This document shows, one piece after another, positions 13,155 through 53,029 of a stretch of 64,000 nt of DNA; the stretch's first letter is position 1; every line of letters begins with the position of its first letter. The translations under genes were made by a program, and so were the position numbers. A model generated the notes under the pieces. It made no database searches and had not been told where the DNA came from. It worked only from the letters and a program-made list of their open reading frames with translations. Origin of the DNA: a virus; IMG/VR virus record IMGVR_UViG_3300029368_000161. One strand, written 5' to 3'.

Positions 13155-13195
13155 TCCTTTGACGATTCCCCAAATGGCGCAATATTTGTATTAGA
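13155..13195 (+). promoter_or_regulatory. Type-B promoter
   Basis: cctttgacgattccccaaatggcgcaatatttgtat. Confidence 0.5.
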
Positions 13196-14083: not shown

Positions 14084-14109
14084 GGTATGCATGAGAAAGA
14101 GGGAATGTA

Positions 14110-14439
14110 ATGAGATTAATTAACAAAAACAAAGGAACTCCGTTTGCAGATGTAGGTGCATACGTTTGCGAGCTTACCGACGAATTGGATGCTCTTGCGA
14201 AGACTGTGTCAGACGCAAGTGTCAACCGGCACTATATTTTGGCGGATGAATTCTGTAAAAGGAATAAATGCCTTGCAATCCGTATACCAGGCTGCACTTT
14301 GGGCGGAATACATTACAACCACGACAATATTGTTACAGGGATCGAAATTAATACAGACTGCATGAACAAGATATATTTATTGAACGCAAAAGAACTGGTT
14401 AATAAATACATCGGAGATAAAATTGAGTTTGCAAAATAA
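14110..14439 (+). CDS. hypothetical protein (109 aa)
   Basis: RBS GAGGGAATGTA-ATG. Confidence 0.45.
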   Translation: MRLINKNKGTPFADVGAYVCELTDELDALAKTVSDASVNRHYILADEFCKRNKCLAIRIPGCTLGGIHYNHDNIVTGIEINTDCMNKIYLLNAKELVNKYIGDKIEFAK

Positions 14440-14989
14440 GTTTCTCTGGTAAGTTTCGGAGGAAGAAAAAAGGAGAATCATGGAAATGGAAGTATGGCCA
14501 GTTCTAACTGATAAAAGCCGAGCAATTACTTTCTGCCTGCTGGCATTTCTATATCAAACAGGTATTTCATATTAAAGTTAAAGAAAGGGATCATCTTTAA
14601 AATTTTCCCTTTAAAATATACAAAGGACTGGTACAACATATGAGAACAGAAACAACTAGCATTTCGGCAAGAAGAAAGAAAAAGACGAATACAGAACTTA
14701 ATAAGGTTAATCATGAGGCGCGTGCGCGGGGCATGTCGTATGGACAGTATTCATCCAAGGCGTATGCCCCGGTGGTTGAAAAAAGAGGAAGAATTGTGTA
14801 AGGATGTACTTTGATTGATCAAAGTTAGTTAACACAAAAATAGCAAGCAGTTTCTCGTTTCCAGAAATTCTGGGAAAGAAACTGCTTTTTGTATACATTG
14901 AATGCCTTGGCTGCATCAGAGGTATTCGTCGATGTCGTCGTAGTCCTGTATATCTTTAATATGCAACAAGAAAAGTTTGCGGCGCTTTT

Positions 14990-15046
14990 TTCATCTCATA
15001 TTCCTGATGTAAACAAATTTTGAAAATCGAAAGGAGATAATTTATT
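14990..15046 (+). promoter_or_regulatory. Type-A promoter/leader module
   Basis: ttttttcatctcatattcctgatgtaaacaaattttgaaaatcgaaaggagataatttattATG. A large terminator hairpin lies upstream at 14842-14890. Confidence 0.55.
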
Positions 15047-16963
15047 ATGGAAGGACAGATGAGTTTATTCAATACACCGGAGGTATCCGGAACATCGGCA
15101 CTTAAGGTTTCCAGAGATTTTGGAGAACATATCGGAGGCGCGAGAAAGGAACTCTGGTCAGCTGGAGGCATCAATCTTGAGGATCTTTTAGATATGAATG
15201 ATGCTGAGAAAGCAAAATTCGTAAAGAAAGACAATATCTGGAAGAAACCGGGTTACGAGCAGATGGTTGAAGCTGGCGTTCCGAAGGTAGTCGCTTACGC
15301 GATCAAAGAGGTGCGCAATGCAATTCCAGCAAAGCCATATGTTTCGTATTTCGAGCAGGACGATCCAGAGAAGGTGAAATACCGGATGGAGTGTTACGTC
15401 AAATTCGTGACCATGATCAGGGATACCATGTCGGGTGTTTCTTCTGAAGAAGAGTTTATGGAGAAACAGCAGGTTGTTTACAATCAGATTGTTGATCCGG
15501 AGCGCAGTACGCGTTACAGTATCTCTTCCAAACCGGAGTATACCGGATTGTTCCAGACGAAGCTTTTGCGTGCGATCCGCTGTGGTCATCAGACTTTCTC
15601 TGGCTACGCATACTGTGCAGAAGAAGAACAGTTTGCTGTGAAGAAAGAAGATAAGATACCTGCCGGATGGAAGATTGAAAAATATTCCCCGGATGGTTTT
15701 TACAGCCGTAGCCGTGTCGGATGCATCAGGGATACTTACATTGTTTCCAAAGGGTATTCTGTCATTGAGAAGAATATCCCAACGTACGAGGAAGCACTTT
15801 GTAAGTGCCAGGAATACGCAAAGCAGCTGAGAGCCAAGAAGCCACGCAAGGCTTCCGCTACTCCAAAGCAGCTGAAACGGGTTGAGCGTACCGGCCTTCC
15901 TGATGTCCGGAACGGACGGGATATCGTAGGAGAGGATTTCCTTAAGGATTTTGGTATCCGCGGTGGAGAGTTCGGCAACTGGATGTCCGAAAAGGACGCA
16001 CAGGCAAGTCTTAACATGGCGTACGAAGCATTCTGCGATTTTGCAGATGTCCTTGGCATCCCGTTATCTTCCGTGTCTTTCGGAGGCCGTCTTGCAATCG
16101 CTTTTGGTGCAAGAGGGCAGGGTTCCGCCGTCGCTCATTACGATCCGCTTCGTGAGGTAATCAATATTACGAAGATGAAAGGAGCCGGATCGCTTGGTCA
16201 TGAGATGTTCCATGCACTTGATGACATCGTAGCAAAGAAATTGGGATTAAAGAAAATGATGACAGAATCATTTGAGAAAGAAAAAATCCCGGAGAGCGTG
16301 CGAAATGTGATTTCTGCCATGCAGTACCGCAAGGCGACAAAAGAAGAGATCGAAGCTGAGAAGACAAAGAAGATCGAGGGCACAGAAAAACGTCTTCAGA
16401 AATGTATTGATTCTGTTTTCCCGGCAGACGGTCTTACAGATGCGCAGGTCAAAAAGAGAGCGGAACTTGTAAGGAATATCTTCGCAGACAAAGAGGAGCA
16501 CCTTATATCCATTGATGGAACGGCAACAGCTGCAATCGAGGCACTTTCTTCCTGCAAAAAAGAAGTGACCGGGCGTGTGATCAATAAGGAATCCAGAAAA
16601 GATCTGTTCTGGACCTGGTACAGATACGAAAGGGCTGTGACTGCTTCCTATAATGACATGCAGATGTTATCGGAATACTACAAGGAATCCAAAAAGATGG
16701 ATGACTGCACTTCCAAAGACAAGTTTGGATACTGGTCATCCACCGTTGAGATGTTTGCCCGCGCTGGTGCATGCTACCTGACCGATATGCTGAAAGCCAA
16801 GGGCGCCAAGAGCGATTACTTATCCGGGCATTCAGAAAGCTGTGTAGGCGTGGATAAGAACCTTGATCCTGTTTTTGCAATGCCGCGTGGTTCAGAAAGA
16901 GAAGCAATCAATGTGGCAATTCACGACATGATTGAAGATCTCAAGGCAAAAGAACTTATTTAA
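15047..16963 (+). CDS. large hypothetical protein with HExxH zincin-like motif (GHEMFHALDD); possible ArdC/anti-restriction-like metallopeptidase-domain protein
   Basis: 638 aa. The HEMFH motif is embedded in AFGARGQGSAVAHYDPLREVINITKMKGAGSLGHEMFHALDD. The family assignment is tentative. Confidence 0.55.
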   Translation: MEGQMSLFNTPEVSGTSALKVSRDFGEHIGGARKELWSAGGINLEDLLDMNDAEKAKFVKKDNIWKKPGYEQMVEAGVPKVVAYAIKEVRNAIPAKPYVSYFEQDDPEKVKYRMECYVKFVTMIRDTMSGVSSEEEFMEKQQVVYNQIVDPERSTRYSISSKPEYTGLFQTKLLRAIRCGHQTFSGYAYCAEEEQFAVKKEDKIPAGWKIEKYSPDGFYSRSRVGCIRDTYIVSKGYSVIEKNIPTYEEALCKCQEYAKQLRAKKPRKASATPKQLKRVERTGLPDVRNGRDIVGEDFLKDFGIRGGEFGNWMSEKDAQASLNMAYEAFCDFADVLGIPLSSVSFGGRLAIAFGARGQGSAVAHYDPLREVINITKMKGAGSLGHEMFHALDDIVAKKLGLKKMMTESFEKEKIPESVRNVISAMQYRKATKEEIEAEKTKKIEGTEKRLQKCIDSVFPADGLTDAQVKKRAELVRNIFADKEEHLISIDGTATAAIEALSSCKKEVTGRVINKESRKDLFWTWYRYERAVTASYNDMQMLSEYYKESKKMDDCTSKDKFGYWSSTVEMFARAGACYLTDMLKAKGAKSDYLSGHSESCVGVDKNLDPVFAMPRGSEREAINVAIHDMIEDLKAKELI

Positions 16964-17004
16964 CAACAACGAAGAAGGGCTTGCAGCGATGCAGGCCTTT
17001 TTTT

Positions 17005-17057
17005 GTTTCATATTAAAGAATGTAAACAATTTGATCATCGAAAGGAGAAAAAATACT
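17005..17057 (+). promoter_or_regulatory. Type-A promoter/leader module
   Basis: tttcatattaaagaatgtaaacaatttgatcatcgaaaggagaaaaaatactATG, after the terminator aagggcttgcagcgatgcaggccttttttt. Confidence 0.55.
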
Positions 17058-17942
17058 ATGAAAAAATCAAACGAAGAAAAAACTTATGCAACTCTTAAAC
17101 TTGGTAAGACTTATAAGTTTGCCGGATACAATTGGATGGCCTGTGAAGTGGATAATGACCGTCATGTTGTTGTAATCCAGTCGCATGGGGTAACCCATGG
17201 TGCATGGCCGGGATATACAATGCCACAGTTTGGAAACGGCAATTACTATTCCAATTCCATTGATGGAAAGGACATCAGCGACTACGATGACAAGATGCGG
17301 GCACTTTACGATGACATCAAAGATGCAGAGGATAAAGCTGCTCCTTATGGGGAAGGACTGTATTTGATATCAGTGGAAAAAGCCGAGTTTAAGGAATGGG
17401 ATAACACAGGTTCCGGAAATTACTGGCAGGCATTGAAGGCAACGGCAGAAAACGCCCATTCGTTCCGGGATGCCAATTACTTTGCGTGGCTCGGTGCTGA
17501 CAATGGCAGCAAAGGCGCGTGGTGTGTTGACTCGGATGGCTGCTTCTACAACTACTTCAATAAACGCAACGACTTTGTTATTGCCCCATGCTTCAACTTA
17601 GATTTATCGAAGGTTAAAGTTGTAGATAACGAAATCGTCATTATAGACAATAAATTTGGTATATCCTTAATTGAGAAACCAGATGTTTATGGCCTGGTAA
17701 AATCAGAAATCATTAAAATGTATGACATGCTGGACACGGATGAAGTATACCCGTTAGAAATCAGCGGTTCCCAGAGTTCTGCAATGGGCTTTATTACCCA
17801 AAAGGCAGCGGAAGTCATTGATTATGACTACGAGAATTCGGGGCTGAATGAATTTATATCATCTATTCTGGATGATATGGATAAGGAATCAGAAGACAGT
17901 ATCTATGATTTCCATGGTGTTAAAATTCATCTTGAACGTTGA
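17058..17942 (+). CDS. hypothetical protein; paralog family 1 (QSHGVTHGxWPG...FGNGNYY...SGNYWQALK...APxFNLDLSK)
   Basis: The N-terminal ~190 aa are paralogous to the 60632 and 61216 gene products. Confidence 0.6.
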   Translation: MKKSNEEKTYATLKLGKTYKFAGYNWMACEVDNDRHVVVIQSHGVTHGAWPGYTMPQFGNGNYYSNSIDGKDISDYDDKMRALYDDIKDAEDKAAPYGEGLYLISVEKAEFKEWDNTGSGNYWQALKATAENAHSFRDANYFAWLGADNGSKGAWCVDSDGCFYNYFNKRNDFVIAPCFNLDLSKVKVVDNEIVIIDNKFGISLIEKPDVYGLVKSEIIKMYDMLDTDEVYPLEISGSQSSAMGFITQKAAEVIDYDYENSGLNEFISSILDDMDKESEDSIYDFHGVKIHLER

Positions 17943-18046
17943 TCAGTCATACATAACCCGATGCACCGGGAACTAAAAATTGAGGTTCCCGTGTAAAGGG
18001 GGAACCTCTTTGTTTAACAGCATTGTGCTGAGAAAGAGAGGAAATT

Positions 18047-18892
18047 ATGAGCTATTACAAAGTAAGAAGTGTTGCATTTAAGCGGTCTATTGGAGAAATC
18101 TATGTTACCTGTGCCGATTCGTCTCTGCGCCCACTCAAGTATTACAGGAGCGAATACGCAGAGAATATTGAGGATTTCGCAGAAAAATGCAAGCTGTTCT
18201 GGGTGGATGTCCTGTCTGGAAATTTCCAGTTTACGGAGAGTAATCAATGGCATTTTTATGTTAAGAATGCTTATGCAGAAATGCACCTGATTGCACACAA
18301 CATCGACATTTTCAGCAAGGATTTGGATTACAGAACTAATTTTTATAATGAATTGCAAGAGTATGTTGCAAAAACTTACCTTGTACCTCTTGTAACAAAG
18401 GAAGCAAAACGTATCGATATTGATTTCGAAGCAGATTTTGCCGAGAGATGTCAGAAAAGATGGGATGAGATTGATAAGGAACGTGCCGAAAAGAAGCAGA
18501 TCAGCATCCGTGCAGCTTTGATATCAGATGTATTTCCTGGATGGGATACGCTTTTGAGTAAAAAAGAGAATCGTATCATTGTTGCAAAGAGTCAGAATTA
18601 CGATAATCATGGTTTGCTGGATAATTCAGATAAAACAGCTGTTCTACTACCAGAAGGCAGTGGAAATGATTGGCGCTGGATTGCGTACGCAAATATGGAA
18701 GATCTTCCGGAGATTCTGGAAAAATATCCGCAACTTGTAAGTGCTATCACTGTCGAAGCATCATATCAGTCCGGAGAGCGTGCTGTAATGGATGGCTATA
18801 CAAAAATCTGCCAGAAACCAGATGGGAAGGCTCTGTATGTAGAAAATAGTAATGGAAAAGTATCCTGGGCAGAGGAAACTGGATATTGCTAG
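18047..18892 (+). CDS. hypothetical protein (281 aa)
   Basis: RBS GAGAGGAAATT-ATG. Confidence 0.55.
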   Translation: MSYYKVRSVAFKRSIGEIYVTCADSSLRPLKYYRSEYAENIEDFAEKCKLFWVDVLSGNFQFTESNQWHFYVKNAYAEMHLIAHNIDIFSKDLDYRTNFYNELQEYVAKTYLVPLVTKEAKRIDIDFEADFAERCQKRWDEIDKERAEKKQISIRAALISDVFPGWDTLLSKKENRIIVAKSQNYDNHGLLDNSDKTAVLLPEGSGNDWRWIAYANMEDLPEILEKYPQLVSAITVEASYQSGERAVMDGYTKICQKPDGKALYVENSNGKVSWAEETGYC

Positions 18893-18906
18893 GAGGTGTA
18901 AGAATC

Positions 18907-19203
18907 ATGCAACAAATTACATCATATAACCAGCTGTTCACTAATATTTCAGAGCATCCAGAATATCCATACATAATCATTGATTTTCTTGTTGTAAATG
19001 ATGAGAAAGTAGATCTTTGGTGTTCGCAGCGTACTTCATCATTATTGAAGATTGGAGAACCAAAGCATCGGCTATTGAGAGGAAAAGTAGCTTATGATAC
19101 CCCGGAAATGAAAAGAATAGGCAGAGAGATAAAGAGAAAACTGCAGAAAGATTTGCGTGGTACTGGTTTTGAAGTGCATAGCAATCTGCGTTTTAGGTTC
19201 TGA
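18907..19203 (+). CDS. hypothetical protein (about 98 aa)
   Basis: AGGAGGTGTAAGAATC-ATG start. Terminator at 19219-19250. Confidence 0.5.
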   Translation: MQQITSYNQLFTNISEHPEYPYIIIDFLVVNDEKVDLWCSQRTSSLLKIGEPKHRLLRGKVAYDTPEMKRIGREIKRKLQKDLRGTGFEVHSNLRFRF

Positions 19204-19247
19204 CATTTACAGATGGAATTAAGAAGAGTCTTCTGGCTCTTCTTTTT

Positions 19248-19301
19248 TTTATTGCATATTAAGGGTGTAAACAAAACATATTTGAAAGGAGAATTGAAAC
19301 T
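19248..19301 (+). promoter_or_regulatory. Type-A promoter/leader module
   Basis: attgcatattaagggtgtaaacaaaacatatttgaaaggagaattgaaactATG. Confidence 0.55.
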
Positions 19302-22659: not shown

Positions 22660-22893
22660 GTTGCACCACGCAAGGGTGCAGGGGTGAAATATTATACTGA
22701 ATCGTCGCTGCCTGCATAGATATAGTTGCATCCCTTATGGGATGTATGGGTTGAAATTCAATAGAAACAGATGCATTCGGAGGTGTTACAAGTTGCACCC
22801 CCGCAAGGGGTGCATGGGTTGAAAATAAGAAATGGTAGGAAGGAATTCAGATATGAACATTAGTTGCATCCCGCAAGGGTGCAGGGGTGAAGT
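22660..22893 (+). CRISPR. Mini CRISPR array M1: 4 degenerate type I-C-like repeats, 3 spacers
   Basis: Repeats are gttgcaccacgcaagggtgcaggggtgaaat, gttgcatcccttatgggatgtatgggttgaaat, gttgcacccccgcaaggggtgcatgggttgaaaat and gttgcatcccgcaagggtgcaggggtgaag. Spacers are 34-36 nt. Spacer 2 (tcaatagaaacagatgcattcggaggtgttacaa) recurs in M3. Confidence 0.7.
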
Positions 22894-29545: not shown

Positions 29546-30460
29546 TTAACCTGCCAGAAGCTCAGCCTCAGTGTTCGTTCTTTTATACAATCGTTCGAAT
29601 TCGTTTGGCGACATATAGTTGCAATGGCTATGAATTCGTTTCGTATTGTAGAAAGCTTCCAGATATTCAAAAATCAACTGGTATGCTTGCTTATAATCAC
29701 GGATTTTAAAGCGATTGAGCCATTCACGTTTGATAACAGAATGAAAGGATTCAATGCATGCATTATCCCACGGAAAAGCTTTCTTCGAATAACTGCGCTG
29801 CATATTTTCGGTTGCTTTTTTATATTCCTTTGCAACATATTGGCTGCCACGATCCGAATGGATAATTAATGGTTGATCGATATTTCGGCGAGCTTTGGCT
29901 TTGTTTATCGTATCAATCACGCAGGATACTTCCAGTGTTTCTGAAAGCGTCCAGGCTATGATTTTTCTGGAAAATAAATCCATAACACTGGTCAGATAGA
30001 CAAATCCATCTATTGTCCAGATGTAGGTAATATCCGAACACCAGACTGCATTCGGACGATCAGGATTAAACTGCTCATCGAGGATATTTTGTAATTCAGT
30101 GCTGAAATCGGAATCTTTTGTGGTGATCGTCCATGGTTTGCTCCACTGAGCACGGATTCCCATTTGGCGCATATATGTACCAACGGTTCTTTCCGAAATG
30201 ACTTCACCAGTTTTTCGAAGTTCTACAGTGATTTTCGGAGCACCGTAGTTCTGCTTGGAATCATCATAAATATCCTGTATTTTTGCTTTTACAGATTCAC
30301 GGCGTTTTTCTGTATCAGAAGGCACGCGGTGGAGCCATGCACGATATCCTGAACGTGAGACACCTAAAAATTTCAACATTCCGGAGACGGAAAACCGGCG
30401 TCCAGCCTTTTGGGCAGCTTCCGTCTTCTCAGACACTTCGAGATAAATGGCTTCCGTCAT
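29546..30460 (-). CDS. IS3-family transposase OrfB (DDE integrase core)
   Basis: 304 aa. ...CSDITYIWT...LIIHSDRGSQYVAKEYK...DNACIESFHSVIKREW... (DD(35)E rve fold). Confidence 0.85.
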   Translation of the reverse strand: MTEAIYLEVSEKTEAAQKAGRRFSVSGMLKFLGVSRSGYRAWLHRVPSDTEKRRESVKAKIQDIYDDSKQNYGAPKITVELRKTGEVISERTVGTYMRQMGIRAQWSKPWTITTKDSDFSTELQNILDEQFNPDRPNAVWCSDITYIWTIDGFVYLTSVMDLFSRKIIAWTLSETLEVSCVIDTINKAKARRNIDQPLIIHSDRGSQYVAKEYKKATENMQRSYSKKAFPWDNACIESFHSVIKREWLNRFKIRDYKQAYQLIFEYLEAFYNTKRIHSHCNYMSPNEFERLYKRTNTEAELLAG

Positions 30461-30741
30461 TTTCCCAGAATGTTGATTGCTTTTTTTAATACATCAAGTG
30501 CATCTTGGGCATCACGTAATTCACGTCTGAGACGGGCGATTTCTTTCTGTTCATCGGATGCGTAATTACCAGAACCCCGAACAGGAATATCACCGGATTC
30601 ACGGAAGTCTTTCAGCCACTTTGTTAGTGTGCTGTATCCGATGCCAAGATTTTCTGCACATCCACGTACTCCGAGATCTTTATGATCTTGATAGTACTGG
30701 ATTGCATCAAGTTTAAATTGTTTGTCATGTTGCTTTGCCAT
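30457..30741 (-). CDS. IS3-family transposase OrfA (HTH)
   Basis: 94 aa, MAKQHDKQFKLDAIQYYQDHKDLGVRGCAENLGIGYSTLTKWLK...RRELRDAQDALDVLKKA, with a leucine-zipper-like end. Confidence 0.8.
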   Translation of the reverse strand: MAKQHDKQFKLDAIQYYQDHKDLGVRGCAENLGIGYSTLTKWLKDFRESGDIPVRGSGNYASDEQKEIARLRRELRDAQDALDVLKKAINILGK

Positions 30742-34456: not shown

Positions 34457-34508
34457 GAAAGAAGCCGGGGAATCCCGACTTTTCTGCTGCATTGTGTGTA
34501 TATTTTAA

Positions 34509-34582
34509 CGCCGCCTGCGGGATTCGAACCCGCGGATAAAGAGTTCAAAGCTCCCTGCGTTAACCTTTTCGCCAAGGCGGAG
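34509..34582 (-). tRNA. tRNA-Gln(TTG)-like (terminal acceptor pair mismatched)
   Basis: Reverse complement folds with T-arm GCGGG-TTCGAAT-CCCGC. Anticodon stem GGGAG/CTCTT with loop CTTTGAA. No encoded CCA. Confidence 0.5.
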
Positions 34583-34650
34583 CACACCCGGAAGGACTCG
34601 AACCCTCGTTACCGGTTTTGGAGACCAGTTTCTGTCCATCAGACAGGTGC
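34583..34650 (-). tRNA. tRNA-Trp(CCA)
   Basis: Anticodon loop CTCCAAA flanked by stem CTGGT/ACCGG. T-loop TTCGAGT. Acceptor GCACCTG/CGGGTGT has G.U pairs. Confidence 0.55.
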
Positions 34651-34654
34651 GTAA

Positions 34655-34725
34655 CAGGCGATAATGGAATCGAACCATTGTTTTCTGAGTCAGAATCAGA
34701 TGTCTTACCATTGAACGAATCGCCC
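34655..34725 (-). tRNA. tRNA-Gln(CTG)
   Basis: Acceptor GGGCGAT/ATCGCCT. Anticodon stem TCTGA/TCAGA with loop TTCTGAC. T-arm AATGG-TTCGATT-CCATT. Confidence 0.6.
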
Positions 34726-34727
34726 AG

Positions 34728-34801
34728 TATCCCCAAAGGGACTCGAACCCTTAACCGACAGATTAGAAATCTGTTGCTCTTTCCAATTGAGCTATGGGGA
34801 T
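34728..34801 (-). tRNA. tRNA-Arg(TCT)
   Basis: Clean cloverleaf: ATCCCCA-TA-GCTC-AATTGGAAA-GAGC-A-ACAGA-TTTCTAA-TCTGT-CGGTT-AAGGG-TTCGAGT-CCCTT-TGGGGAT-A. Confidence 0.8.
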
Positions 34802-34807
34802 ATATAG

Positions 34808-34897
34808 CGCAGACACCGGGGATCGAACCCGGACAGCGGGTGTGCCGCATGCCACATTAGCAGTGTGGAGGGGTACCATTTACCTTTATATGTCTGC
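34808..34897 (-). tRNA. tRNA-Ser(GCT)-like, 90 nt with long variable arm (D-arm atypical)
   Basis: Anticodon stem-loop CCACA-CTGCTAA-TGTGG. Variable arm GCGG-CACA-CCGC. T-arm CCGGG-TTCGATC-CCCGG. Acceptor GCAGACA/TGTCTGC. Confidence 0.5.
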
Positions 34898-34902
34898 ATA
34901 AG

Positions 34903-34974
34903 AGGCATCGGAGGGGATCGAACCCTCGCCTTCCGGGTTGCAGCCGGACGCCTTCGCCGTTTGGCTACGATGCC
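34903..34974 (-). tRNA. tRNA-Cys(GCA)
   Basis: GGCATCG-TA-GCC...GGC-TCCGG-CTGCAAC-CCGGA-..GAGGG-TTCGATC-CCCTC-CGATGCC-T. The U73 discriminator is typical of Cys. Confidence 0.8.
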
Positions 34975-35004
34975 ATATAATTCTTCCCGATAAGAGAAGA
35001 TGAG

Positions 35005-35088
35005 CGCTGGGGCAGGGAGTCGAACCCTGATATCCTTTCGGAATGACGGTTTTCAGGACCGTTGCTTTACCAGTTGAGCCACCACAGC
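35005..35088 (-). tRNA. tRNA-Ser(TGA) with long variable arm
   Basis: Anticodon stem ACGGT/ACCGT with loop CCTGAAA. Variable arm TCC-GAAA-GGA. T-arm CAGGG-TTCGACT-CCCTG. 3-bp D stem GCT/AGC. Confidence 0.6.
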
Positions 35089-35333
35089 AAAAATAAAAGC
35101 ATACACCTCTCAATCGAAAGATGTATGCTTTGCAATTCCAGGTATTTCCAATATTCTCCCGGAAATTTCCCTACAATGACCACATTTCTTTCAATTTGAG
35201 ACAATATTTATTTGCACGACAACTACGCCAGATACATGACTGCGACTGACTCATACTTGCCTGTGAATATTGTCTCATTACTGCTGTAATCATTGATTTT
35301 CCCTTCCTTTCCTTGGTTTTCTTGAATATTTAG

Positions 35334-35407
35334 TGTGTCTGGTGGGACTTGAACCCGACGACCCCACGATTAAAAGTCGCGTGCTCTGCCAACTGAGCTA
35401 CAGACAC
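35334..35407 (-). tRNA. tRNA-Lys(TTT)
   Basis: GTGTCTG-TA-GCTC-AGTTGGCA-GAGC-A-CGCGA-CTTTTAA-TCGTG-GGGTC... acceptor CAGACAC-A. Strongly resembles Bacillus tRNA-Lys. The T stem has irregular pairing. Confidence 0.7.
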
Positions 35408-35412
35408 ATAAG

Positions 35413-35484
35413 CGGATCAGGAGGGAATCGAACCCTCATCTTCCGGTAGACAGCCGGATGTACTAGCCGCTATACTACAGATCC
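35413..35484 (-). tRNA. tRNA-Asp(GTC)
   Basis: Anticodon stem TCCGG/CCGGA with loop CTGTCTA. T-arm GAGGG-TTCGATT-CCCTC. One T.T mismatch in the acceptor stem. Confidence 0.65.
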
Positions 35485-35488
35485 ATAA

Positions 35489-35561
35489 AGCTCCCGTCCG
35501 GCTTCGAACCGGAAACCTTCTGATTACAAGTCAGATGCACTACCAGTTGTGCTACAGGAGC
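35489..35561 (-). tRNA. tRNA-Thr(TGT)
   Basis: GCTCCTG-TA-GCAC-AACTGGTA-GTGC-A-TCTGA-CTTGTAA-TCAGA-AGGTT-TCCGG-TTCGAAG-CCGGA-CGGGAGC-T. Confidence 0.8.
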
Positions 35562-35645
35562 AGGAACACTTCCGACGGGTGCTGCCCCGCTATCTCCGCC
35601 GTGACAGGGCGGTGACTCTGTTGTTTGTCCTCGGAAGTAAATAAG

Positions 35646-35727
35646 TGCGCCGGGGAGGACTCGAACCTCCGGTGTTTCTTTGTGGCTGATTTACAGTCAG
35701 CTGCTGTCGCCTCTGAGCCACCGACGC
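35646..35727 (-). tRNA. tRNA-Tyr(GTA), 82 nt with extended variable region
   Basis: Acceptor GCGTCGG/CCGGCGC. Anticodon stem GCTGA/TCAGC with loop CTGTAAA. T-arm GGAGG-TTCGAGT-CCTCC. Confidence 0.65.
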
Positions 35728-35732
35728 ATAAG

Positions 35733-35804
35733 CTGGTCCGGAGGGTCTCGAACCCTCAACGCCCCGGTTAACAGCCGGGTGCTCTACCATTGAGCTACGG
35801 ATCA
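35733..35804 (-). tRNA. tRNA-Asn(GTT)
   Basis: D-arm GCTC-AATGGTA-GAGC. Anticodon stem CCCGG/CCGGG with loop CTGTTAA. T-arm GAGGG-TTCGAGA-CCCTC. One A.C mismatch in the acceptor. Confidence 0.7.
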
Positions 35805-35805
35805 G

Positions 35806-35877
35806 AGCATGTGACGGGTCTCGAACCCGCCCGTCCTGCTTGGAAGGCAGGTGTGCCGCCAACAACACTTCACATGC
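35806..35877 (-). tRNA. tRNA-Gly(TCC)
   Basis: Acceptor GCATGTG/CACATGC with discriminator U. Anticodon stem CCTGC/GCAGG with loop CTTCCAA. 4-nt variable loop. T-arm GCGGG-TTCGAGA-CCCGT. Confidence 0.7.
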
Positions 35878-35942
35878 ATGCGGATAAAAGAAGTGCCTGT
35901 TTTCTCTTATCCATTCAGTTTTTTTACCGCATCGCTGCGGAG

Positions 35943-36014
35943 TGGACAGGAGTGGTAACGATCCACCCTGTAAGGATTTTCAGTCCTTCGCTAATCCATC
36001 TCAGCTACCTGTCC
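35943..36014 (-). tRNA. tRNA-Phe(GAA)-like with non-canonical T-loop (ATCGTTA)
   Basis: Acceptor GGACAGG/CCTGTCC (perfect 7 bp). 8-9 is TA. Anticodon stem AAGGA/TCCTT with loop CTGAAAA. T-arm GGTGG-ATCGTTA-CCACT lacks the T54/A58 identities. It lies 65 nt away from the main cluster. Confidence 0.45.
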
Positions 36015-36432
36015 ATGGCTTTTTCTGCAATAAAAAAGCCGCATCAAGAAATTTCCTCTTCTCTCTGCGGTCATCTGCGTTTTGCAATATTTCGGTTTTA
36101 AGTGCCTGGTTTAAAATCGAAATCGACCGCGGGAAGGTGTATCATAATAGTTCTGTCCCCATGTTTTCCCGGATTTTGAGCATGAGAAACTAAACATATT
36201 GCTGAAATCGCCGTATGTTCTACAATCATTATTAAAATTTTTACTACTCATCATCTTTAACATGGTTTTCTTTTCCTTTCATTTTAATTAATGCTGGATA
36301 AACAAAAAGCCCGTCACTTAACTCAAAGCTACACATCCAAATAGCTCTGAGTTAAAAGACAGGCACTTCTTTTATCTCATGCACTTATCATATCATACTG
36401 ATCGTGAAGTGTCAACAGGAAATTTAAAAAAG

Positions 36433-36510
36433 GTTATTTTTGGTTATTTTGGTTATTTTTCAAAATAAAACAAAATAAAACAAAATAAAACAAATAAAAA
36501 TCTCCGCCAA
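36433..36510. repeat. tandem microsatellite-like repeats (GGTTATTTT)x3 then (AAAACAAAAT)x4
   Basis: ggttatttttggttattttggttatttttcaaaataaaacaaaataaaacaaaataaaacaaataaaaa, immediately before a hairpin terminator (atctccgccaaaatagacggagattt). Confidence 0.7.
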
Positions 36511-37622: not shown

Positions 37623-37781
37623 TTGCATTCCAGTGGAATGCATGGGGTGAAAGAAATAGGCAAATCGCATGACAATTTCTGAAATTAAATTGTTGCGCTC
37701 CCGTGGAGGGGGGCGTATGGATTGAAATGTGGAATCCTGTGATTGGCACATACTTGGGTGTAGTGCAGAAAAAGTGACCCA

Positions 37782-39316: not shown

Positions 39317-39488
39317 GCTGCATCATGTGCGGGGGTGTATGGATTGAAATGTCGGAGTATGGTGTAAGAATCATATATATTCCTACGTTGTGCTCCTCCC
39401 GGTTGGTGCATGGGTTGAAATATAGTTCTAAAAATGGTTGGAAGACCTGTTTTTTGGTTACACCCATTGTCAGCTGTAAACCACAGTT
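39317..39488 (+). CRISPR. Mini CRISPR array M2: 3 degenerate repeats, 2 spacers, starting 2 nt after the stop of the preceding gene
   Basis: gctgcatcatgtgcgggggtgtatggattgaaat / spacer gtcggagtatggtgtaagaatcatatatattcct / acgttgtgctcctcccggttggtgcatgggttgaaat / spacer atagttctaaaaatggttggaagacctgttttttg / gttacacccattgtcagctgtaaaccacagtt. Confidence 0.55.
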
Positions 39489-41012: not shown

Positions 41013-41231
41013 GTTGCGCCCCATTGGGTGCATGGGTTGAAATCTTTATGACCTTCTGAAAAGTGAGGGCATCTTAGTTGCACCCCCGCAAGGGATGTAT
41101 GGGTTGAAATTCAATAGAAACAGATGCATTCGAAGGCGTTACAAGTTGCACCCCGCGAGGGGTGTATGGGTTGAAATTGCAGAAAGCTCAGGATTGGAAG
41201 GTTGCATCCTATGGGATGCATGGATTGAAAC
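41013..41231 (+). CRISPR. Mini CRISPR array M3: 4 repeats, 3 spacers; the middle repeat-spacer-repeat unit is near-identical to M1
   Basis: gttgcgccccattgggtgcatgggttgaaat / ctttatgaccttctgaaaagtgagggcatctta / gttgcacccccgcaagggatgtatgggttgaaat / tcaatagaaacagatgcattcgaaggcgttacaa / gttgcaccccgcgaggggtgtatgggttgaaat / tgcagaaagctcaggattggaag / gttgcatcctatgggatgcatggattgaaac. Confidence 0.7.
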
Positions 41232-41717: not shown

Positions 41718-42392
41718 ATGGAAAAAGAAAAAATGGGAGTGAAACTAAAAGTCTGGGGAGATTACGCATTGTTCACCAGACCAGAACTGAAAACTGAACG
41801 GTATACATACGATGTGATGACACCGTCGGCGGCTAGAGGAATTCTGGAATCTATCTACTGGCATCCGGGACTTCGGTGGTATGTAGACAAGATTCATGTA
41901 TTAAATCCGATTGCCACTACGAGCGTGAGAAGAAATGAACTTCTCAGTAAGATACCAAAGTCAAATATGCTGCAGGCATACAACGGCGGGGATGTGAAAC
42001 TGTATAACTCGTCAAGAGACGATATTATCCAGAGGGCATCTGTTATTCTCCGGGATGTCTGCTATGTGATTGAGGCGCATTTTGAAATGACAGGGAAAGC
42101 GAGCCCAACAGACAGCCCGGCAAAGTTTATAAGTATCTTTAACAACAGGGCAAGAAAAGGGGCATGTTATTCGATGCCGTATTTTGGTGTAAGGGAATTC
42201 CCGGCACACTTTGAACTCTGCGAAGGAGATGAAAAGATCCCATCCTACTATGAAGGACTTCCGGATAAAGATCTCGGGCTGATGCTTTATGATCTGGATT
42301 ACTCCTGCGGTAGAGATATCCAGCCAATGTATTATCATGCGATTATGAAAAACGGCGTTATTGACGTTGGAAACAGTGAGGTGCTTCGATGA
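41718..42392 (+). CDS. cas5c: Cas5c (type I-C Cas5d; Cascade subunit and pre-crRNA endoribonuclease)
   Basis: N-terminus ...KLKVWGDYALFTRPELKTERYTYDVMTPSAARGILESIYWHP matches the Cas5d hallmark. 224 aa. Overlaps cas8c by ATGA. Confidence 0.8.
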   Translation: MEKEKMGVKLKVWGDYALFTRPELKTERYTYDVMTPSAARGILESIYWHPGLRWYVDKIHVLNPIATTSVRRNELLSKIPKSNMLQAYNGGDVKLYNSSRDDIIQRASVILRDVCYVIEAHFEMTGKASPTDSPAKFISIFNNRARKGACYSMPYFGVREFPAHFELCEGDEKIPSYYEGLPDKDLGLMLYDLDYSCGRDIQPMYYHAIMKNGVIDVGNSEVLR

Positions 42393-44128
42393 TCCTTCAG
42401 TCACTTGTGAAATTATATGAAACACTTGCGGATCAGGGAAAAGTGTCCCGTCCTGGCTGGTGTAATGCAAAGGTATCCTATGCGGTGGTTTTAAACCATG
42501 ATGGGACGATTAAAGATATTGTTTCCGTGAAACAGAAAGTGAAGAGAGGAAAGAAGACTGTTGAAATTCCAATAATTATGCAGGTTCCAGAGATGGTCAC
42601 CCGCGCTAACAACATTGCCTCCAGCTTTCTCTGCGAAAATGCAAAGTATCTCTTTGGGATTGACGAAAAGATGAGTTTGCGTACACTGGAATGTTTTAAG
42701 GCGGCAAAGAAAAAACATCTTGATATTCTTGATGTTGTGGATTCACCTGTAGCACAGACGGTATGTAACTTTTTCCGTTCATGGGATCCGGAACAGGCGT
42801 TGGATCAACCGGCTGTTGCAAAACTTGCAGAAGAGTTTTATAAAGGCGGAAACCTCGTTTTTGAAGTAGATGGGGAATATGTGCATGATAATGAAGAAGT
42901 CCGCAGGGCATGGATGGATTACAGCAGTGTACCATATGAAATGGTAATTGGAAGATGCCTTATTACTGGAGAGGAAGCGGAGATTGCCCGCACGCACGGG
43001 AAAATCAAAGGAGTTCCGGGAGCACAGTCATCTGGCGCGTCGCTTGTATCATTTAACGGAGCATCCCTTGAGTCTTATGAAAAAACACAGAGCTACAACG
43101 CGCCGATTAGCACCTATGCGGCGTATGCATATGTGACCGCGCTGAATTACTTGCTTTCTACGGACGGGTATCACAGCAAGGTAGGAGATTCCATGGTGGT
43201 TTTCTGGACAGATTCCGGGGATGTGGATGATGTGAGCAGACTGCGGAAGATGATGGGAAGCATCAATGAAAAGGATCACACCCCTACAGATACGGATGAA
43301 AAACTGTACGTCCTCTGCCTTGCACCAAATGCCGGGCGAATTGCAGTCCGGTTCTTCTATGAGGATGCGATCGGGGTAATCTGGGAAAACCTGTCCGAAC
43401 ATGCCAGTCGGATGAAGATTGTAAAACCAGTATTTGAGGATCAAGAATTTATCAATATCTGGCAGATGCTCATGGAGACAGTCAACCAGAATCTTACAGA
43501 TAAAACACCTGTCCCGCATATGTCAGCAATGACGTTACAGTCAGTCATTTCGGATACACCGTATCCGCAGAGTCTGTATGCAGGTGTGTTATCTCGTATC
43601 CGCGCGGAGCACAAAGGTGTTACTTACAGAAAAGCATCGATTATTAAAGCTTTTTTAATAAAGAACTACAAATGGGAGGAAGGAAAAAATATGGAAGCAT
43701 TAAATGAAGGCTGTAAGGATCGGGCATATATCCTTGGAAGACTGTTTGCGGTTATGGAAAAGGCACAGAAAGAAGCAGTTGGCAATATCAACCAGACAAT
43801 TTGTGATAAGTTTTACAATTCCGCGTGCACAACACCAAGATCGATCTTTCCAGTACTGATCAGGCTATCTAACAGTCATTTAAGTAAGTTGAAACGGACA
43901 AAACCGGGGAGAGGATATTATTTTACAGCTAAAATGCAGGATTTAATGGATAAAATTCCGGTAACAGATGATGATCCGGGATTCCCGCGGCGTTTCTCAT
44001 ATGAGGATCAGGGTAAGTTTGCACTTGGTTATTATCATCAGATGCGGGCGGAATATACAAGCAGTAAGTTAAAAGATAATGATTCAGAAGGTGATCAGAC
44101 AAATGCAGAGAATATGGAGGAAAACTAA
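42389..44128 (+). CDS. cas8c: Cas8c (Csd1, type I-C large subunit)
   Basis: 579 aa, of the size expected for Cas8c/Csd1. Assigned from the conserved order cas5c-cas8c-cas7c and translational coupling to cas5c (ATGA overlap). Confidence 0.7.
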   Translation: MILQSLVKLYETLADQGKVSRPGWCNAKVSYAVVLNHDGTIKDIVSVKQKVKRGKKTVEIPIIMQVPEMVTRANNIASSFLCENAKYLFGIDEKMSLRTLECFKAAKKKHLDILDVVDSPVAQTVCNFFRSWDPEQALDQPAVAKLAEEFYKGGNLVFEVDGEYVHDNEEVRRAWMDYSSVPYEMVIGRCLITGEEAEIARTHGKIKGVPGAQSSGASLVSFNGASLESYEKTQSYNAPISTYAAYAYVTALNYLLSTDGYHSKVGDSMVVFWTDSGDVDDVSRLRKMMGSINEKDHTPTDTDEKLYVLCLAPNAGRIAVRFFYEDAIGVIWENLSEHASRMKIVKPVFEDQEFINIWQMLMETVNQNLTDKTPVPHMSAMTLQSVISDTPYPQSLYAGVLSRIRAEHKGVTYRKASIIKAFLIKNYKWEEGKNMEALNEGCKDRAYILGRLFAVMEKAQKEAVGNINQTICDKFYNSACTTPRSIFPVLIRLSNSHLSKLKRTKPGRGYYFTAKMQDLMDKIPVTDDDPGFPRRFSYEDQGKFALGYYHQMRAEYTSSKLKDNDSEGDQTNAENMEEN

Positions 44129-44129
44129 G

Positions 44130-45041
44130 ATGAGCACACCAATTAAGAACAGATATGATTTCGTAGTATTATTCGACGTAGAGAATGGAAATCCGAACGG
44201 TGATCCGGATGCCGGAAATATGCCGAGAGTTGATCCAGAGACTGGCATCGGGCTTGTGACAGATGCCTGCATAAAGCGCAAGATCCGTAATTATGTGGAA
44301 ACTGTAAAAGAAGATGCAGCCGGGTTCAAGATCTATATTAAAGAGGGGGTCCCGCTGAACCGGAGTGACCTTAAGGCAGTCGAAAGTCTTGGTATTGACG
44401 TCGGTGACGACAAAAATGCACTTGAAGATGTAAAGAAGCTGAAAAAGACAGATGAAGATGTGGATCTTAAGCTCCGTGACTATATGTGTAGTAATTTCTA
44501 TGATATCCGTACATTTGGTGCTGTCTTGACTACCTTTACAAAGGCGGCATTAAACTGTGGGCAGGTACGTGGCCCGGTACAGATTGGTTTTGCAAAAAGT
44601 ATTGATCCTGTTTTCAGCCAGGATATTACTGTAACCAGAGTTGCAATCACAACGGAAAAGGATGCGGAAAAGAAAAATACAGAAATGGGAAGAAAGAGTA
44701 TTATTCCTTATGGACTTTACCGTGTGGAGGGATATATTTCTGCTAATCTTGCCCGTAAGACCACCGGCTTTTCTGAAGACGATCTGGAACTGCTTTGGGA
44801 AGCAATCATTAACATGTTTGAGAATGACCATTCCGCAGCACGCGGGAAGATGGCAGTGCGTGAGCTCATCGTATTCAAGCATAACAGCGAGCTTGGCAAT
44901 TGTCCATCGTACAAACTGTTTGAAACTGTTGATGTTAAGAAGAATGATGGTGTTGAGTTTCCTCGTAAATATTCCGATTATGCAGTGACTATTCATGAGG
45001 ATGCGATTCCGGATGGCGTGACAATGACTCGCAAAATCTAA
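44130..45041 (+). CDS. cas7c: Cas7c (Csd2/DevR family, type I-C backbone subunit)
   Basis: MSTPIKNRYDFVVLFDVENGNPNGDPDAGNMPRVDPETGIGLVTDACIKRKIRNYVE. The GNPNGDPD motif is the Csd2/Cas7 signature. RBS GGAGGAAAACTAAG-ATG. Confidence 0.85.
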   Translation: MSTPIKNRYDFVVLFDVENGNPNGDPDAGNMPRVDPETGIGLVTDACIKRKIRNYVETVKEDAAGFKIYIKEGVPLNRSDLKAVESLGIDVGDDKNALEDVKKLKKTDEDVDLKLRDYMCSNFYDIRTFGAVLTTFTKAALNCGQVRGPVQIGFAKSIDPVFSQDITVTRVAITTEKDAEKKNTEMGRKSIIPYGLYRVEGYISANLARKTTGFSEDDLELLWEAIINMFENDHSAARGKMAVRELIVFKHNSELGNCPSYKLFETVDVKKNDGVEFPRKYSDYAVTIHEDAIPDGVTMTRKI

Positions 45042-45290: not shown

Positions 45291-46058
45291 AGCTACGCCC
45301 CATGGAGGGGCGTATGGATTGAAAATACCGCAACAATTAAAGGCAATGAAAATCTTGTACGCTACGCCCCATGGAGGGGCGTATGGATTGAAAATGATTG
45401 TTATTGTTTTTTATTCATGGAGAGGAAAGCTACGCCCCATGGAGGGGCGTATGGATTGAAAAGTAAGGTTTCGTCTCGAAGCCTTTATTCTGTTTTGCTG
45501 CGCCCCATGGAGGGGCGTATGGATTGAAATACCAAAATCTTTTGACATTCTTATAAATGGTAACAGCTACGTCTTATGGGGTACGTATGGATTGAAATCA
45601 TAATAATTGTAGAGATCTCAATACAAAATAAAGCTGCGTCTCATGGAATACGTATGGATTGAAATGAAAAGGCGAGTTTGCGAAAGCAGATATTGGAATG
45701 TTGCGTCTCGTGGAGTACGTATGGATTGAAATTCCAACTTTAACTACATAACTATCCTGATAAACTTGCTGCACCCCATGGAGAGTGTATGGATTGAAAT
45801 TTAAAAAATCATGGATAACATCTGCGATAAGACGTTGCACCTCGCTAGGGGTGTATGGGTTGAAATTTCCATAATCGGTAGCCAATTATTATCATTAGGT
45901 GTTGCACCCCATAGAGGGTGTATGGATTGAAATTATATAAAAATGATGAATATGTAAAAAAAATAAAAGAGTTACGCTCCATGGAGTGCGTATGGCTTGA
46001 AACCTCTTATTTTTTTAAAGATATCACAATTACGCCCAAAGTGGGCTTACGTAAATTT
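45291..46058 (+). CRISPR. Type I-C CRISPR array: 11 repeats (33-34 nt, consensus GYTRCRCCCCATGGAGRGKGTATGGATTGAAAT) plus a terminal degenerate repeat; 10-11 spacers of 26-38 nt
   Basis: The repeat end GGATTGAAAT/C and internal hairpin match canonical I-C repeats. The leader side is adjacent to cas7c. Repeats degenerate toward the distal end (ttacgctccatggagtgcgtatggcttgaaac, then ttacgcccaaagtgggcttacgtaaatt, which runs into the RBS of the 46073 gene). Spacers are listed in the findings. Confidence 0.85.
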
Positions 46059-52908: not shown

Positions 52909-53029
52909 TTTCTTGCGGAGCAGAGCAGAGGAAGGCTCACCGGGCTCATGACCTGGGTGTCGGATGTTCGATTCCTTTCTCCGCAATTAATTTTAAAAAA
53001 GGGAGGTTATAACATGTTCTAACTGATTA

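Follow-up and report, generated by a model that had tools for sequence, protein, structure and literature searches.

A transfer RNA gene array with putative leader-peptide attenuators on a large element of the human gut

Arrays of transfer RNA (tRNA) genes in mobile elements, such as those of phage T4 (a cluster that also holds small stable RNAs), phage T5, the cluster C1 mycobacteriophages and megaplasmids, consist of head-to-tail, often divergent tRNA genes on one strand with short spacers, a variable membership, small RNAs or open reading frames (ORFs) lodged among the tRNA genes, and an accessory maturation enzyme. These traits recur in an array that we analyzed in a 64,000-nucleotide (nt) stretch of DNA, IMG/VR record IMGVR_UViG_3300029368_000161; this whole stretch is called the window below. 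The array differs from the described ones in lying on the opposite strand to almost all other genes, in having its own promoter, and in containing modules of an ORF and a terminator that mirror the tRNAs encoded downstream. In form these modules resemble the trpL, hisL, pheL, thrL and ilv leaders, with which they share a short ORF with a Shine-Dalgarno sequence, an enrichment in particular codons, a terminator, and an antiterminator at the end of the ORF. They differ from these leaders in that the regulated genes are tRNA genes, that the leaders are longer, with 37-51 codons, and would sense five to twelve amino acids simultaneously, that a further hairpin (T1) and a conserved 5' motif are present, and that the likely host is a Firmicute, a group in which T-box riboswitches normally do the sensing. 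The T-box riboswitches of Firmicutes also use a leader RNA to sense the status of tRNAs and to control a terminator; here there is no T-box match, and sensing would occur through translation of an ORF rather than through tRNA binding. On in silico evidence throughout, we consider it somewhat probable that the locus is a self-contained tRNA operon whose output is gated by two leader-peptide attenuators and which would supply tRNAs on demand. We found no earlier description of leader-peptide attenuators controlling tRNA genes in the literature searched.

Between 34508 and 36014 ARAGORN detected 13 minus-strand tRNA genes, in the order Phe, Gly, Asn, Tyr, Thr, Asp, Lys, Ser(UGA), Cys, Arg, Gln(CUG), Trp and Gln(UUG), and 13 of the 14 array genes reach or exceed the gathering score (29 bits) of the Rfam family RF00005 (range 33.1-71.6 bits). 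The remaining gene, Ser(GCU), which ARAGORN misses, was recovered by Rfam at a permissive threshold with 28.3 bits (34808-34893), just under the gathering score, and folds as a cloverleaf. The 14 genes that a sequence-only reading of this DNA had proposed are thus upheld, 13 of them by ARAGORN with the same anticodons, and the start it gave for tRNA-Trp, 34652, is corrected to 34650. In the order of transcription the genes are:

35943-36014, minus strand: tRNA-Phe(GAA), ARAGORN and Rfam (47.6 bits), with the T-loop AUCGUUA (A54/U58)
35806-35877, minus strand: tRNA-Gly(UCC), ARAGORN and Rfam
35733-35804, minus strand: tRNA-Asn(GUU), ARAGORN and Rfam, with a conserved A3-C70 mismatch
35646-35727, minus strand: tRNA-Tyr(GUA), ARAGORN and Rfam, with a long, unstructured variable region
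35489-35561, minus strand: tRNA-Thr(UGU), ARAGORN and Rfam
35413-35484, minus strand: tRNA-Asp(GUC), ARAGORN and Rfam, with the anticodon loop CUGUCUA (U37, A38) and a U6-U67 mismatch
35334-35407, minus strand: tRNA-Lys(UUU), ARAGORN and Rfam, its T-stem bulged in the window lineage and regular in lineage L101
35005-35088, minus strand: tRNA-Ser(UGA), ARAGORN and Rfam, with C33 in the window lineage
34903-34974, minus strand: tRNA-Cys(GCA), ARAGORN and Rfam
34808-34897, minus strand: tRNA-Ser(GCU), with a deviant D region, the gene just under the Rfam gathering score
34728-34801, minus strand: tRNA-Arg(UCU), ARAGORN and Rfam
34655-34725, minus strand: tRNA-Gln(CUG), ARAGORN and Rfam
34583-34650, minus strand: tRNA-Trp(CCA), 68 nt long with a shortened D arm, Rfam 33.1 bits
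34509-34581, minus strand: tRNA-Gln(UUG), ARAGORN and Rfam, with a U1-C72 mismatch

The spacers had been described as 0-5 nt throughout; gaps of 29, 64, 83 and 244 nt are also present, and they hold conserved features. For comparison we used relatives of the locus at increasing distance: L011, which is about 98% identical over shared segments, L101 and L114, whose tRNAs are 78-99% and spacers 46-66% identical to those of the window, and L113, which bears a distinct array of 20 tRNAs. Around and between the tRNA genes the following features are predicted:

36387-36415, minus strand: sigma-70-type promoter, TTGACA, 17 nt, then TGnTATGAT, with 11 of 12 consensus positions and an extended -10 element
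36111-36263, minus strand: ORF-A, 50 codons (MLKMMSSKNFNNDCRTYGDFSNMFSFSCSKSGKTWGQNYYDTPSRGRFRF), with a conserved GAAAGGA Shine-Dalgarno sequence, preceding the whole array
36125-36137, minus strand: AT2, the antiterminator strand (CCUUCCCGCGGUC) inside ORF-A, at about codons 43-46
36089-36124, minus strand: hairpin over the stop codon of ORF-A, with the loop CAGGCAC, conserved in the window, L101 and L114
36032-36070, minus strand: T2, a terminator (CCGCA...UGCGG) followed by U6, between ORF-A and tRNA-Phe and 17 nt upstream of the latter
35171-35293, minus strand: ORF-B, 40 codons (MITAVMRQYSQASMSQSQSCIWRSCRANKYCLKLKEMWSL), with the conserved Shine-Dalgarno sequence GGAAAGGA, inside the 244-nt gap
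35182-35196, minus strand: AT3, the invariant antiterminator strand (AAUUGAAAGAAAUGU), located in the final codons of ORF-B, at the stop or immediately before it
35089-35131, minus strand: T3, a terminator with a 16-bp hairpin and a U-run, directly abutting tRNA-Ser(UGA)
34462-34481, minus strand: T4, the hairpin terminator at the end of the array

Counting T1, which lies in the 5' leader, the array thus has its own promoter and four conserved terminator hairpins. The TTGACA/TATGAT arrangement of the promoter is kept in L101, L102, L112 and L113. Just upstream of it (36432-36499, minus strand) lie A/T-rich tandem repeats, four copies of TTTTATTTTG and then three of AAAAATAACC, which are mutually complementary and may constitute an UP element or a binding site.

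The composition of the two ORFs forms the first line of evidence for the attenuators. In ORF-A, which stands before all the tRNA genes, 44 of 49 residues fall within the set of 12 amino acids for which the array has tRNAs (P = 6e-7); by this measure it ranks first among the 325 small ORFs of the window, and no 49-residue stretch of the long ORFs reaches its fraction. Five variants of ORF-A, the most diverged only 52% identical, have 44-46 served residues and never use A, E, H or V. Its homologues were recovered with HMMER, and its ratio of non-synonymous to synonymous polymorphism (pN/pS) is 0.62. ORF-B precedes only the genes for Ser, Cys, Ser, Arg, Gln, Trp and Gln, and the five amino acids concerned (S, C, R, Q and W) account for 19 of its 39 residues (P = 4e-6), with the amino acids of the tRNAs encoded upstream of it depleted (7/39). 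Its frame, its start and a core of the form SQSQS..W.SC are kept in five lineages at a pN/pS of about 1, i.e. it evolves as if neutral at the protein level; the composition is retained in three variants found by regular expression, and alignment shows the frame open in two further lineages. Both frames stay open in all lineages save the truncated L102.

The second line of evidence is the RNA structure. Both gaps that hold the ORFs, the two longest stretches free of tRNA genes, are strongly structured (z of -5.9 and -6.5). T2 is conserved in the window, L101 and L102, with one pair changed in a compensatory manner from A-U to U-A, and T3 has 98.8% of cells paired in five lineages. The informative folds are those of the leader only up to the terminator loop; a fold of the ORF-B region in which part was masked in imitation of a ribosome is uninformative, because the terminator is then always formed. 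In the window, L101 and L114, folds that end before the 3' arm of T2 show AT2 paired with its 5' arm. AT3 likewise pairs with the 5' arm of T3 in three of four lineages in the partial fold, and in all four when the fold begins past a ribosome stalled at about codon 26. This pairing of AT3 holds in 98.6% of cells in five lineages, with two pairs changed on both sides, compared with 27-49% in slid controls; the leader is predicted to pair AAUUGAAAGA with UCUUUCGAUU. Since these partial folds pair the 5' arm of the terminator with the end of the ORF, the predicted topology is that of a classical ribosome-mediated attenuator. No promoter was found between ORF-B and the tRNA-Ser gene that adjoins T3, and, given that T3 abuts this first distal gene, transcription of the distal tRNAs would need read-through. 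A T-box was not matched at the gathering threshold or at E-values up to 5, and Rfam rules out both a T-box and the other known leader families.

Under the attenuator reading a single sigma-70-type promoter (36415-36387) would drive a polycistronic precursor, with ORF-A and T2 gating the whole array and ORF-B and T3 gating the distal seven tRNAs. A ribosome reaching the end of the ORF would cover the antiterminator, so that the terminator forms and transcription stops; a ribosome stalled for lack of the cognate tRNAs would leave the antiterminator free and permit read-through into the tRNA genes. ORF-B also contains a 12-bp stem that could compete, as upstream pairing does at trp, and so reverse the rise in read-through that an untranslated ORF would otherwise bring. 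The array would in this manner supply tRNAs on demand, for example when those of the host have been depleted or cleaved.

The same layout is seen in the distinct 20-tRNA array of L113. Here a promoter and a Shine-Dalgarno sequence precede an ORF (MKAFTMVSSISQRSIQSSICRQSWSICSEIEYDAEMSE) in which 23 of 37 residues are S, Q, W, R, C or I (P = 8e-7), followed by a terminator and, close downstream, by a cluster encoding tRNAs for Ser, Gln, Ser, Trp, Arg, Cys, Ile, Gln, Ser and Arg. Enrichment of the leader in Ile coincides exactly with the presence of a tRNA-Ile, and the Arg codons of the leader, CGA and AGA, match the two Arg tRNAs with the anticodons ACG and UCU. A second ORF-terminator module stands before the genes for Asn, Phe, Lys, Ala, Leu, Leu and Tyr (P = 0.01), and in both modules an antiterminator strand is located at the end of the ORF. 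We also observed a 437-amino-acid ORF inside this array (L113 5989-7302, minus strand), between tRNA-Ile(UAU) and a pair formed by tRNA-Met and a small tRNA-like RNA that is described below. At the other extreme, L102 (3874-4160) retains only the promoter, the leader hairpin, a truncated ORF-A fused through T2, and tRNA-Phe, which suggests that the unit of ORF-A and tRNA-Phe is able to exist or move alone. The case for attenuation is hence built on the composition of the ORFs, its specificity for the downstream set, the conserved terminators, the antiterminator at the end of each ORF, and the replication in L113. For ribosome-mediated attenuation in the strict sense, as predicted for these four modules in two arrays, acceptance and doubt come close to balancing each other.

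Further conserved elements lie in the leader upstream of ORF-A and, in one case, in a spacer between tRNA genes:

36353-36377, minus strand: the 5' leader motif AGAUAAAAGAAGUGCCUGUCUUUUA, 25 nt, at the predicted start of the transcript
36297-36376, minus strand: T1, a leader hairpin of about 35 bp with a U-run (36300-36309), its 5' arm being the leader motif
35883-35903, minus strand: a 21-nt arm in the spacer between tRNA-Phe and tRNA-Gly, complementary at 20 of 21 positions to 36356-36376 of the leader motif and forming an inverted repeat with it

The leader motif is invariant save for one A/G difference in four lineages, with flanks that are about 50% identical. The T1 hairpin and its U-run are found in three lineages with differing inner sequence (fold z of -8.6, -9.2 and -9.7), and both arms of the 21-nt inverted repeat are conserved in L101 and L011. 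Moreover, the CAGGCAC in the loop of the hairpin at the ORF-A stop (36100-36108) is complementary to GUGCCUG of the leader motif; in L113 a CAGGCAC loop follows tRNA-Asn. A metagenome scan with 19 nt of the motif found 15 loci, of which 13 have tRNA genes, mostly with the motif at the head of the array.

A further conserved RNA occupies the gap between tRNA-Tyr and tRNA-Thr:

35562-35644, minus strand: a tRNA-like RNA (TLE) of 83 nt that is devoid of a D arm

It consists of an 8-bp acceptor-like stem, an anticodon-like hairpin with the loop CUGUCAC, and a T-like hairpin (fold z of -2.6). With a mean identity of 94% over lineages whose spacers are about 50% identical, it is conserved to the same degree as the tRNAs, and a covariance model detected a diverged copy in L113 (5760-5844, minus strand, 43.5 bits) beside tRNA-Met. 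The TLE has no match in Rfam, and its TLE pattern has none in the GTDB representative genomes. That it is a normal tRNA is ruled out by the missing D arm, the lack of a T-loop consensus and the fact that its stems do not covary in L113. The core GCAGAGUC..CUGUCACG..AGAUAGCGGGGUCAGCACCCGU is invariant even in the distant L113, and strain L004 has the loop CUGCCAC. The loop CUGUCAC of the TLE is that of a canonical tRNA-Asp; the true tRNA-Asp of the array has CUGUCUA.

From these observations a more general proposal can be formulated, namely that the array is an autonomous, feedback-controlled module in which the leader ORF reports the supply of exactly those tRNAs that are encoded downstream and opens the terminator only when they run short. 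We regard this as plausible, with doubt slightly uppermost. The extension of the same on-demand design to the arrays on elements of gut Clostridia that share the promoter and the leader motif, with the motif, its CAGGCAC partners and the TLE acting as further layers of control, belongs to this joint proposal and is put forward just as tentatively.

Several points weigh against attenuation. The attenuator model does not account for T1 and the conserved leader motif. Processing, charging and attenuation are all inferred, and only an insertion sequence (IS) element and protein similarity speak for the identity of the host. With only about five lineages to compare, the covariation does not stand out significantly from shuffled controls (54/500 and 127/500), and the slid controls are biased because the structures were derived from one of the sequences compared. 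Thermodynamic folds of the full leaders favor the terminator, except for L114 in the case of T2 and for the first ORF of L113. ORF-A has the look of a weakly constrained, polar small protein with the conserved blocks MFSFSCS, TW and SRGxFRF, and its match to a non-aliphatic tRNA set may in part be fortuitous; S, R and C are often abundant in random small ORFs, and ORF-B ranks only second among the 325. Two of the three Arg codons of ORF-B are CGU, which the Arg(UCU) of the array does not read. Finally, Firmicutes generally lack tight coupling of transcription and translation; ribosome-mediated attenuation is uncommon among them and would need pausing of the RNA polymerase.

The strongest competitor is an ordinary, constitutively expressed array that compensates for codon or amino acid usage, in which no sensing occurs, the small ORFs encode unremarkable small proteins or are spurious, and the hairpins serve as plain terminators or as elements of processing and stability. 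Small ORFs are often interspersed in the tRNA arrays of phages and megaplasmids, and the protein-like conservation of ORF-A, with its pN/pS and conserved blocks, and the strong structure of both gaps also speak for this reading. The codon evidence cuts both ways. We compared the genes of the window with a rough Lachnospiraceae proxy, assembled from the flanks of IS loci and one chromosomal contig, and found that the element uses NNC codons for Tyr, Asn, Phe, Asp and Cys modestly more often and has more Cys, Asn, Phe, Gly and Lys residues. However, overall usage is nearly the same, with the codons read by the array making up 48% of all codons in the element versus 46% in the proxy, so that the compensation of codon usage that the sequence-only reading had suggested is weak on this evidence. 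Constitutive expression is also difficult to reconcile with the position of T3, directly against tRNA-Ser with no promoter found to serve the distal genes other than by read-through, and the set-specific composition of four ORFs along with an antiterminator at each end would all have to be coincidence. We therefore rate the ordinary array as rather unlikely.

The element also encodes an enzyme for the maturation of tRNAs:

6661-8043, plus strand: class II CCA-adding enzyme, comprising a PolyA_pol head (PF01743, 1.4e-35), an HD domain and a tRNA_NucTran2_2 domain

Its motifs GGCVRD, DYD, RDFTIN, EDGLR and HD are intact, so the protein, whose position and nature had been correctly recognized from the sequence, appears to be catalytically competent; its nearest cellular homologues are 50-56% identical. 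As had also been recognized, CCA follows the discriminator in none of the 14 genes, with the corrected coordinates as well. The trailers are CTC, CTG, CTT, CTT, TTA, CTT, CTA, CTC, CTT, CTA, CTG, TTA, CTC and TTA, a non-random composition with C74 in 11 of 14 (P = 3e-5) and U75 in all 14; 11 begin with CU and none with CC. A U precedes the 5' end (position -1) in 11 of 14 genes in the window, and in 12 if Trp is counted on the basis of the ten other strains, where it has this U (P about 2e-6 for 12). In L093 the two readable host-type tRNA genes, for Asn and Cys, also lack CCA, which indicates that its post-transcriptional addition is the norm in the host group, and its absence from the genes no peculiarity of the element. 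Trailers beginning with CC or CCA are stated in PMC7479834, with reference to Pellegrini 2003, to inhibit RNase Z.

Under bacterial identity rules 13 of the 14 discriminator bases fit, namely A73 in Phe, Tyr, Lys and Arg, G73 in Asn, Asp, Ser, Gln and Trp, and U73 in Cys and Gly, the exception being the U73 of Thr. It is quite probable that the tRNAs mature by way of RNase P, RNase Z and CCA addition, in that order. RNase P would cut the 5' ends, as the U at -1 suggests, an RNase Z-type enzyme would cut after the discriminator, in keeping with the lack of CC trailers, and CCA would be added by the enzyme of the host, that of the element, or both. Given that the discriminators fit the identity rules, the mature tRNAs would be charged normally. 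The CCA-adding enzyme of the element may provide extra capacity or repair of 3' ends. In contrast, the "NAD ligase" that had been linked to tRNA repair is by its Pfam domains a LigA-type DNA ligase.

The enzyme and the odd loops of some tRNAs raise, as a second alternative, the possibility that the set is directed against host defenses, with changes in the loops or elsewhere making the tRNAs resistant to tRNA-cleaving systems and the CCA-adding enzyme repairing clipped 3' ends. Precedents exist in phage tRNAs with loop changes that evade anticodon nucleases (PMC10264068) and in Cas12a3, which cleaves CCA tails (PMC12851939). In the present array the canonical anticodon loop (7 nt, U33 and a purine at 37) and T-loop (T54-Psi55-C56...A58) are found in 11 of 14 genes, the departures being C33 in Ser(UGA), U37 in Asp and A54/U58 in Phe; the latter, written ATCGTTA at the DNA level, had been noted earlier and is confirmed here. 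The exceptions in Asp and Phe are kept across lineages: the U37/A38 loop of Asp in three (the window, L011 and L101), and the A54/U58 loop of Phe in four (the window, L011, L101 and L102). In addition, Thr has C33 in L101, the CCA-adding enzyme bears an HD domain, and the anticodon loop of Ser(UGA) has changed three times independently, by U33C in the window lineage (L101 and L114 have U33), by G35A in L106 and L115, and by a deletion in L111. Against this, the changes of Ser(UGA) in relatives look more like decay or drift, the loops of Asn and Cys are identical in the element and in the host-type genes, a comparison that covers these two tRNAs, and no gene for a tRNA ligase, a polynucleotide kinase or a nuclease was seen among the ORFs scanned. 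An anti-defense set, which would be compatible with the attenuator model, is in our estimate improbable.

The variants of Ser(UGA) in relatives belong to a sister lineage. In L106 (4905-4989) and L115 (2664-2748) the gene retains a Ser-type body and G73 and has the anticodon UAA, a Leu anticodon; if charged by seryl-tRNA synthetase, such a tRNA would place Ser at UUA/UUG codons, or alternatively it is a pseudogene. In L111 (2575-2658) the Ser(UGA) gene has a one-base deletion in the loop.

Comparison among the lineages also bears on whether the tRNAs work at all. Eight stem pairs have changed on both sides in a compensatory manner between lineages, one each in Phe, Asn, Tyr and Trp and two each in Gly and Ser(UGA). 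Thus, pair 27-43 of the Phe anticodon stem changes from A-U to C-G, and the T-stem of Phe likewise differs in L101 with pairing kept, so that the stems around its unusual T-loop vary and the pairing is preserved. Both changes in Gly are relative to L101, and the anticodon stem of Trp has changed from C-G to G-C in L011. The acceptor mismatches previously noted in Gln(UUG), Asp and Asn are confirmed, and a further one, U5-C68, which is polymorphic among strains, occurs in Ser(UGA). A3-C70 of Asn and U6-U67 of Asp recur in the diverged L101, and a weak 1-72 pair, as in Gln(UUG), is a known feature of tRNA-Gln. Membership varies at the 3' end of the array: the L011-type lineage has lost Arg(UCU) and Gln(CUG), and in it the T arm of Gln(UUG) has decayed. 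Tyr decays in L107. All 15 anticodons in the window, 14 in the array and one in a tRNA-Met, are sense anticodons; the latter is a lone, weak tRNA-Met(CAU) far from the array (52913-52987, plus strand, Rfam 35.4 bits) that may be of the Met, fMet or Ile2 type. Because the odd features are conserved or compensated across diverged relatives, we consider it highly probable that the tRNAs of the array are functional. The proposal that most of them are decoys, pseudogenes or suppressors, to which the acceptor mismatches, the short D arm of Trp, the bulged T-stem of Lys, the low score of Ser(GCU) and the decay in relatives (Gln(UUG), Tyr and, in L111, Ser(UGA)) lend some color, is very improbable in view of the 13 genes reaching the Rfam gathering score, the compensated stems, the mismatches that are kept across lineages rather than accumulating, the lack of any anticodon in the window that reads a stop codon, and discriminators that fit the identity rules. 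Of the options that the sequence-only reading had listed, decoys and suppressors are accordingly set aside and "genuinely divergent phage tRNAs" is retained in so far as the tRNAs are divergent rather than decayed; their attribution to a phage is unsupported.

As to the element itself, almost all genes of the window other than the array lie on the plus strand, and most of its proteins have no assigned function. Those recognized by Pfam, and the repeats that accompany some of them, are:

window: LigA-type DNA ligase, the CCA-adding enzyme, LPD1-domain protein, helicase and DNA methylases
window: IS3 transposase, flotillin, FtsH-like pieces and PcfJ-like protein
41718-45041: the type I-C proteins Cas5c, Cas8c and Cas7c, with degenerate repeats scattered around them
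45292-46011, 41013-41178, 39317-39421, 37695-37729 and 22724-22826: CRISPR-like repeats

The element hence carries, besides the array, CRISPR-Cas components, methylases and IS elements. Among the ORFs scanned we identified no Cas3, Cas1, Cas2 or Cas4. The degenerate CRISPR-like repeats (...GTATGGRTTGAAAT) are distributed over 23 kb as one array plus a number of mini-arrays or isolated copies. We further noted two families of repeated intergenic motifs, TTTGACGATTTTTCAAAWGGCGCAATATGTGTA and TTTCATTTCATATTnnnnnTGTAAACA, with 11 copies in 11740-58388 and 8 copies in 4601-19273, respectively, which presumably represent two promoter classes of the element, and three paralogous segments that are 74-87% identical (17124-17640, 60677-61190 and 61279-61795), two of them in tandem near 61 kb and one 43 kb away. 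Apparent "diverged" homologues of a neighboring 159-amino-acid protein proved to be frameshifted copies.

The element had been taken for a large phage. Pfam or PHROGs searches of the approximately 40 larger ORFs in the window, and a look at about 8 kb past each end, revealed no virion or packaging gene (terminase, portal, capsid or tail), and IMG/VR has no match for the exact patterns of the locus or for the CCA-adding enzyme; the PcfJ-like and LPD1 proteins point instead toward a conjugative plasmid, and the element may be a megaplasmid. Near and distant DNA searches of INPHARED and PLSDB returned no close relative, with generic tRNA similarity only. The exact sequence of the flotillin protein is present in 1917 blocks of the assembly collection, where the contigs are 200-354 kb long, originate from human-gut samples and bear the same tRNA array; the element is thus very common in human-gut metagenomes. 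More distant relatives of the flotillin are chromosomal (73% identity), on an unrelated element with Cas12a (68%), or on a syntenic element without tRNAs at the corresponding site (75%).

With respect to the host, the IS3 insertion (orfA and rve transposase, 29546-30741, minus strand), which is present in the strain of the window and absent in all ten other strains compared, shares 96-97% identity with IS copies of Roseburia, Blautia, Coprococcus and Lachnospira. Lachnospiraceae proteins are among the nearest cellular flotillins, the CCA-adding enzyme has its nearest homologues on long, chromosome-like contigs, and the best plasmid match of the PcfJ-like protein is a 361-kb megaplasmid of Butyrivibrio proteoclasticus. 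Taken together, these similarities suggest that the host is probably a member of the Lachnospiraceae.

A possible affiliation is provided by the "Hodor" elements, presented in a preprint (bioRxiv 10.64898/2026.02.21.707213) as very prevalent conjugative megaplasmids of the human gut, 211-389 kb in size, with Bacillota-like genes and a type I-C system with a degraded array, which were once classed as huge phages. The present element resembles them in its frequent occurrence in the human gut, its size of more than 200 kb, its Bacillota-like genes, its earlier assignment to phages, and its Cas5c, Cas8c and Cas7c proteins with degenerate repeats. It differs in its GC content of about 40%, compared with the 44.6-47.1% reported for Hodor, and the Rep_3, ParA/ParB/ParM, sortase and type IV secretion system genes that define Hodor are absent from the window and the flanks read, the portion of the element that entered the comparison. 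Nowhere in its main text does the preprint refer to tRNA genes. The element may be a member of Hodor, which we offer as a lead only.

Why mobile elements carry tRNA genes has been debated for decades, the proposals including compensation, the replacement of degraded tRNAs, and escape from tRNA-cleaving defenses. If the attenuator reading is true, a sensor-gated array would furnish direct evidence for supply upon depletion, in a form that simple reporters could test. It would also mean that leader-peptide attenuation reaches RNA genes and that the composition of one short ORF can specify a set of several tRNAs. The element is among the commonest large extrachromosomal sequences of the gut, and, given the occurrence of its flotillin in so many blocks of the assembly collection, such a translation module may matter for the physiology of abundant Lachnospiraceae.

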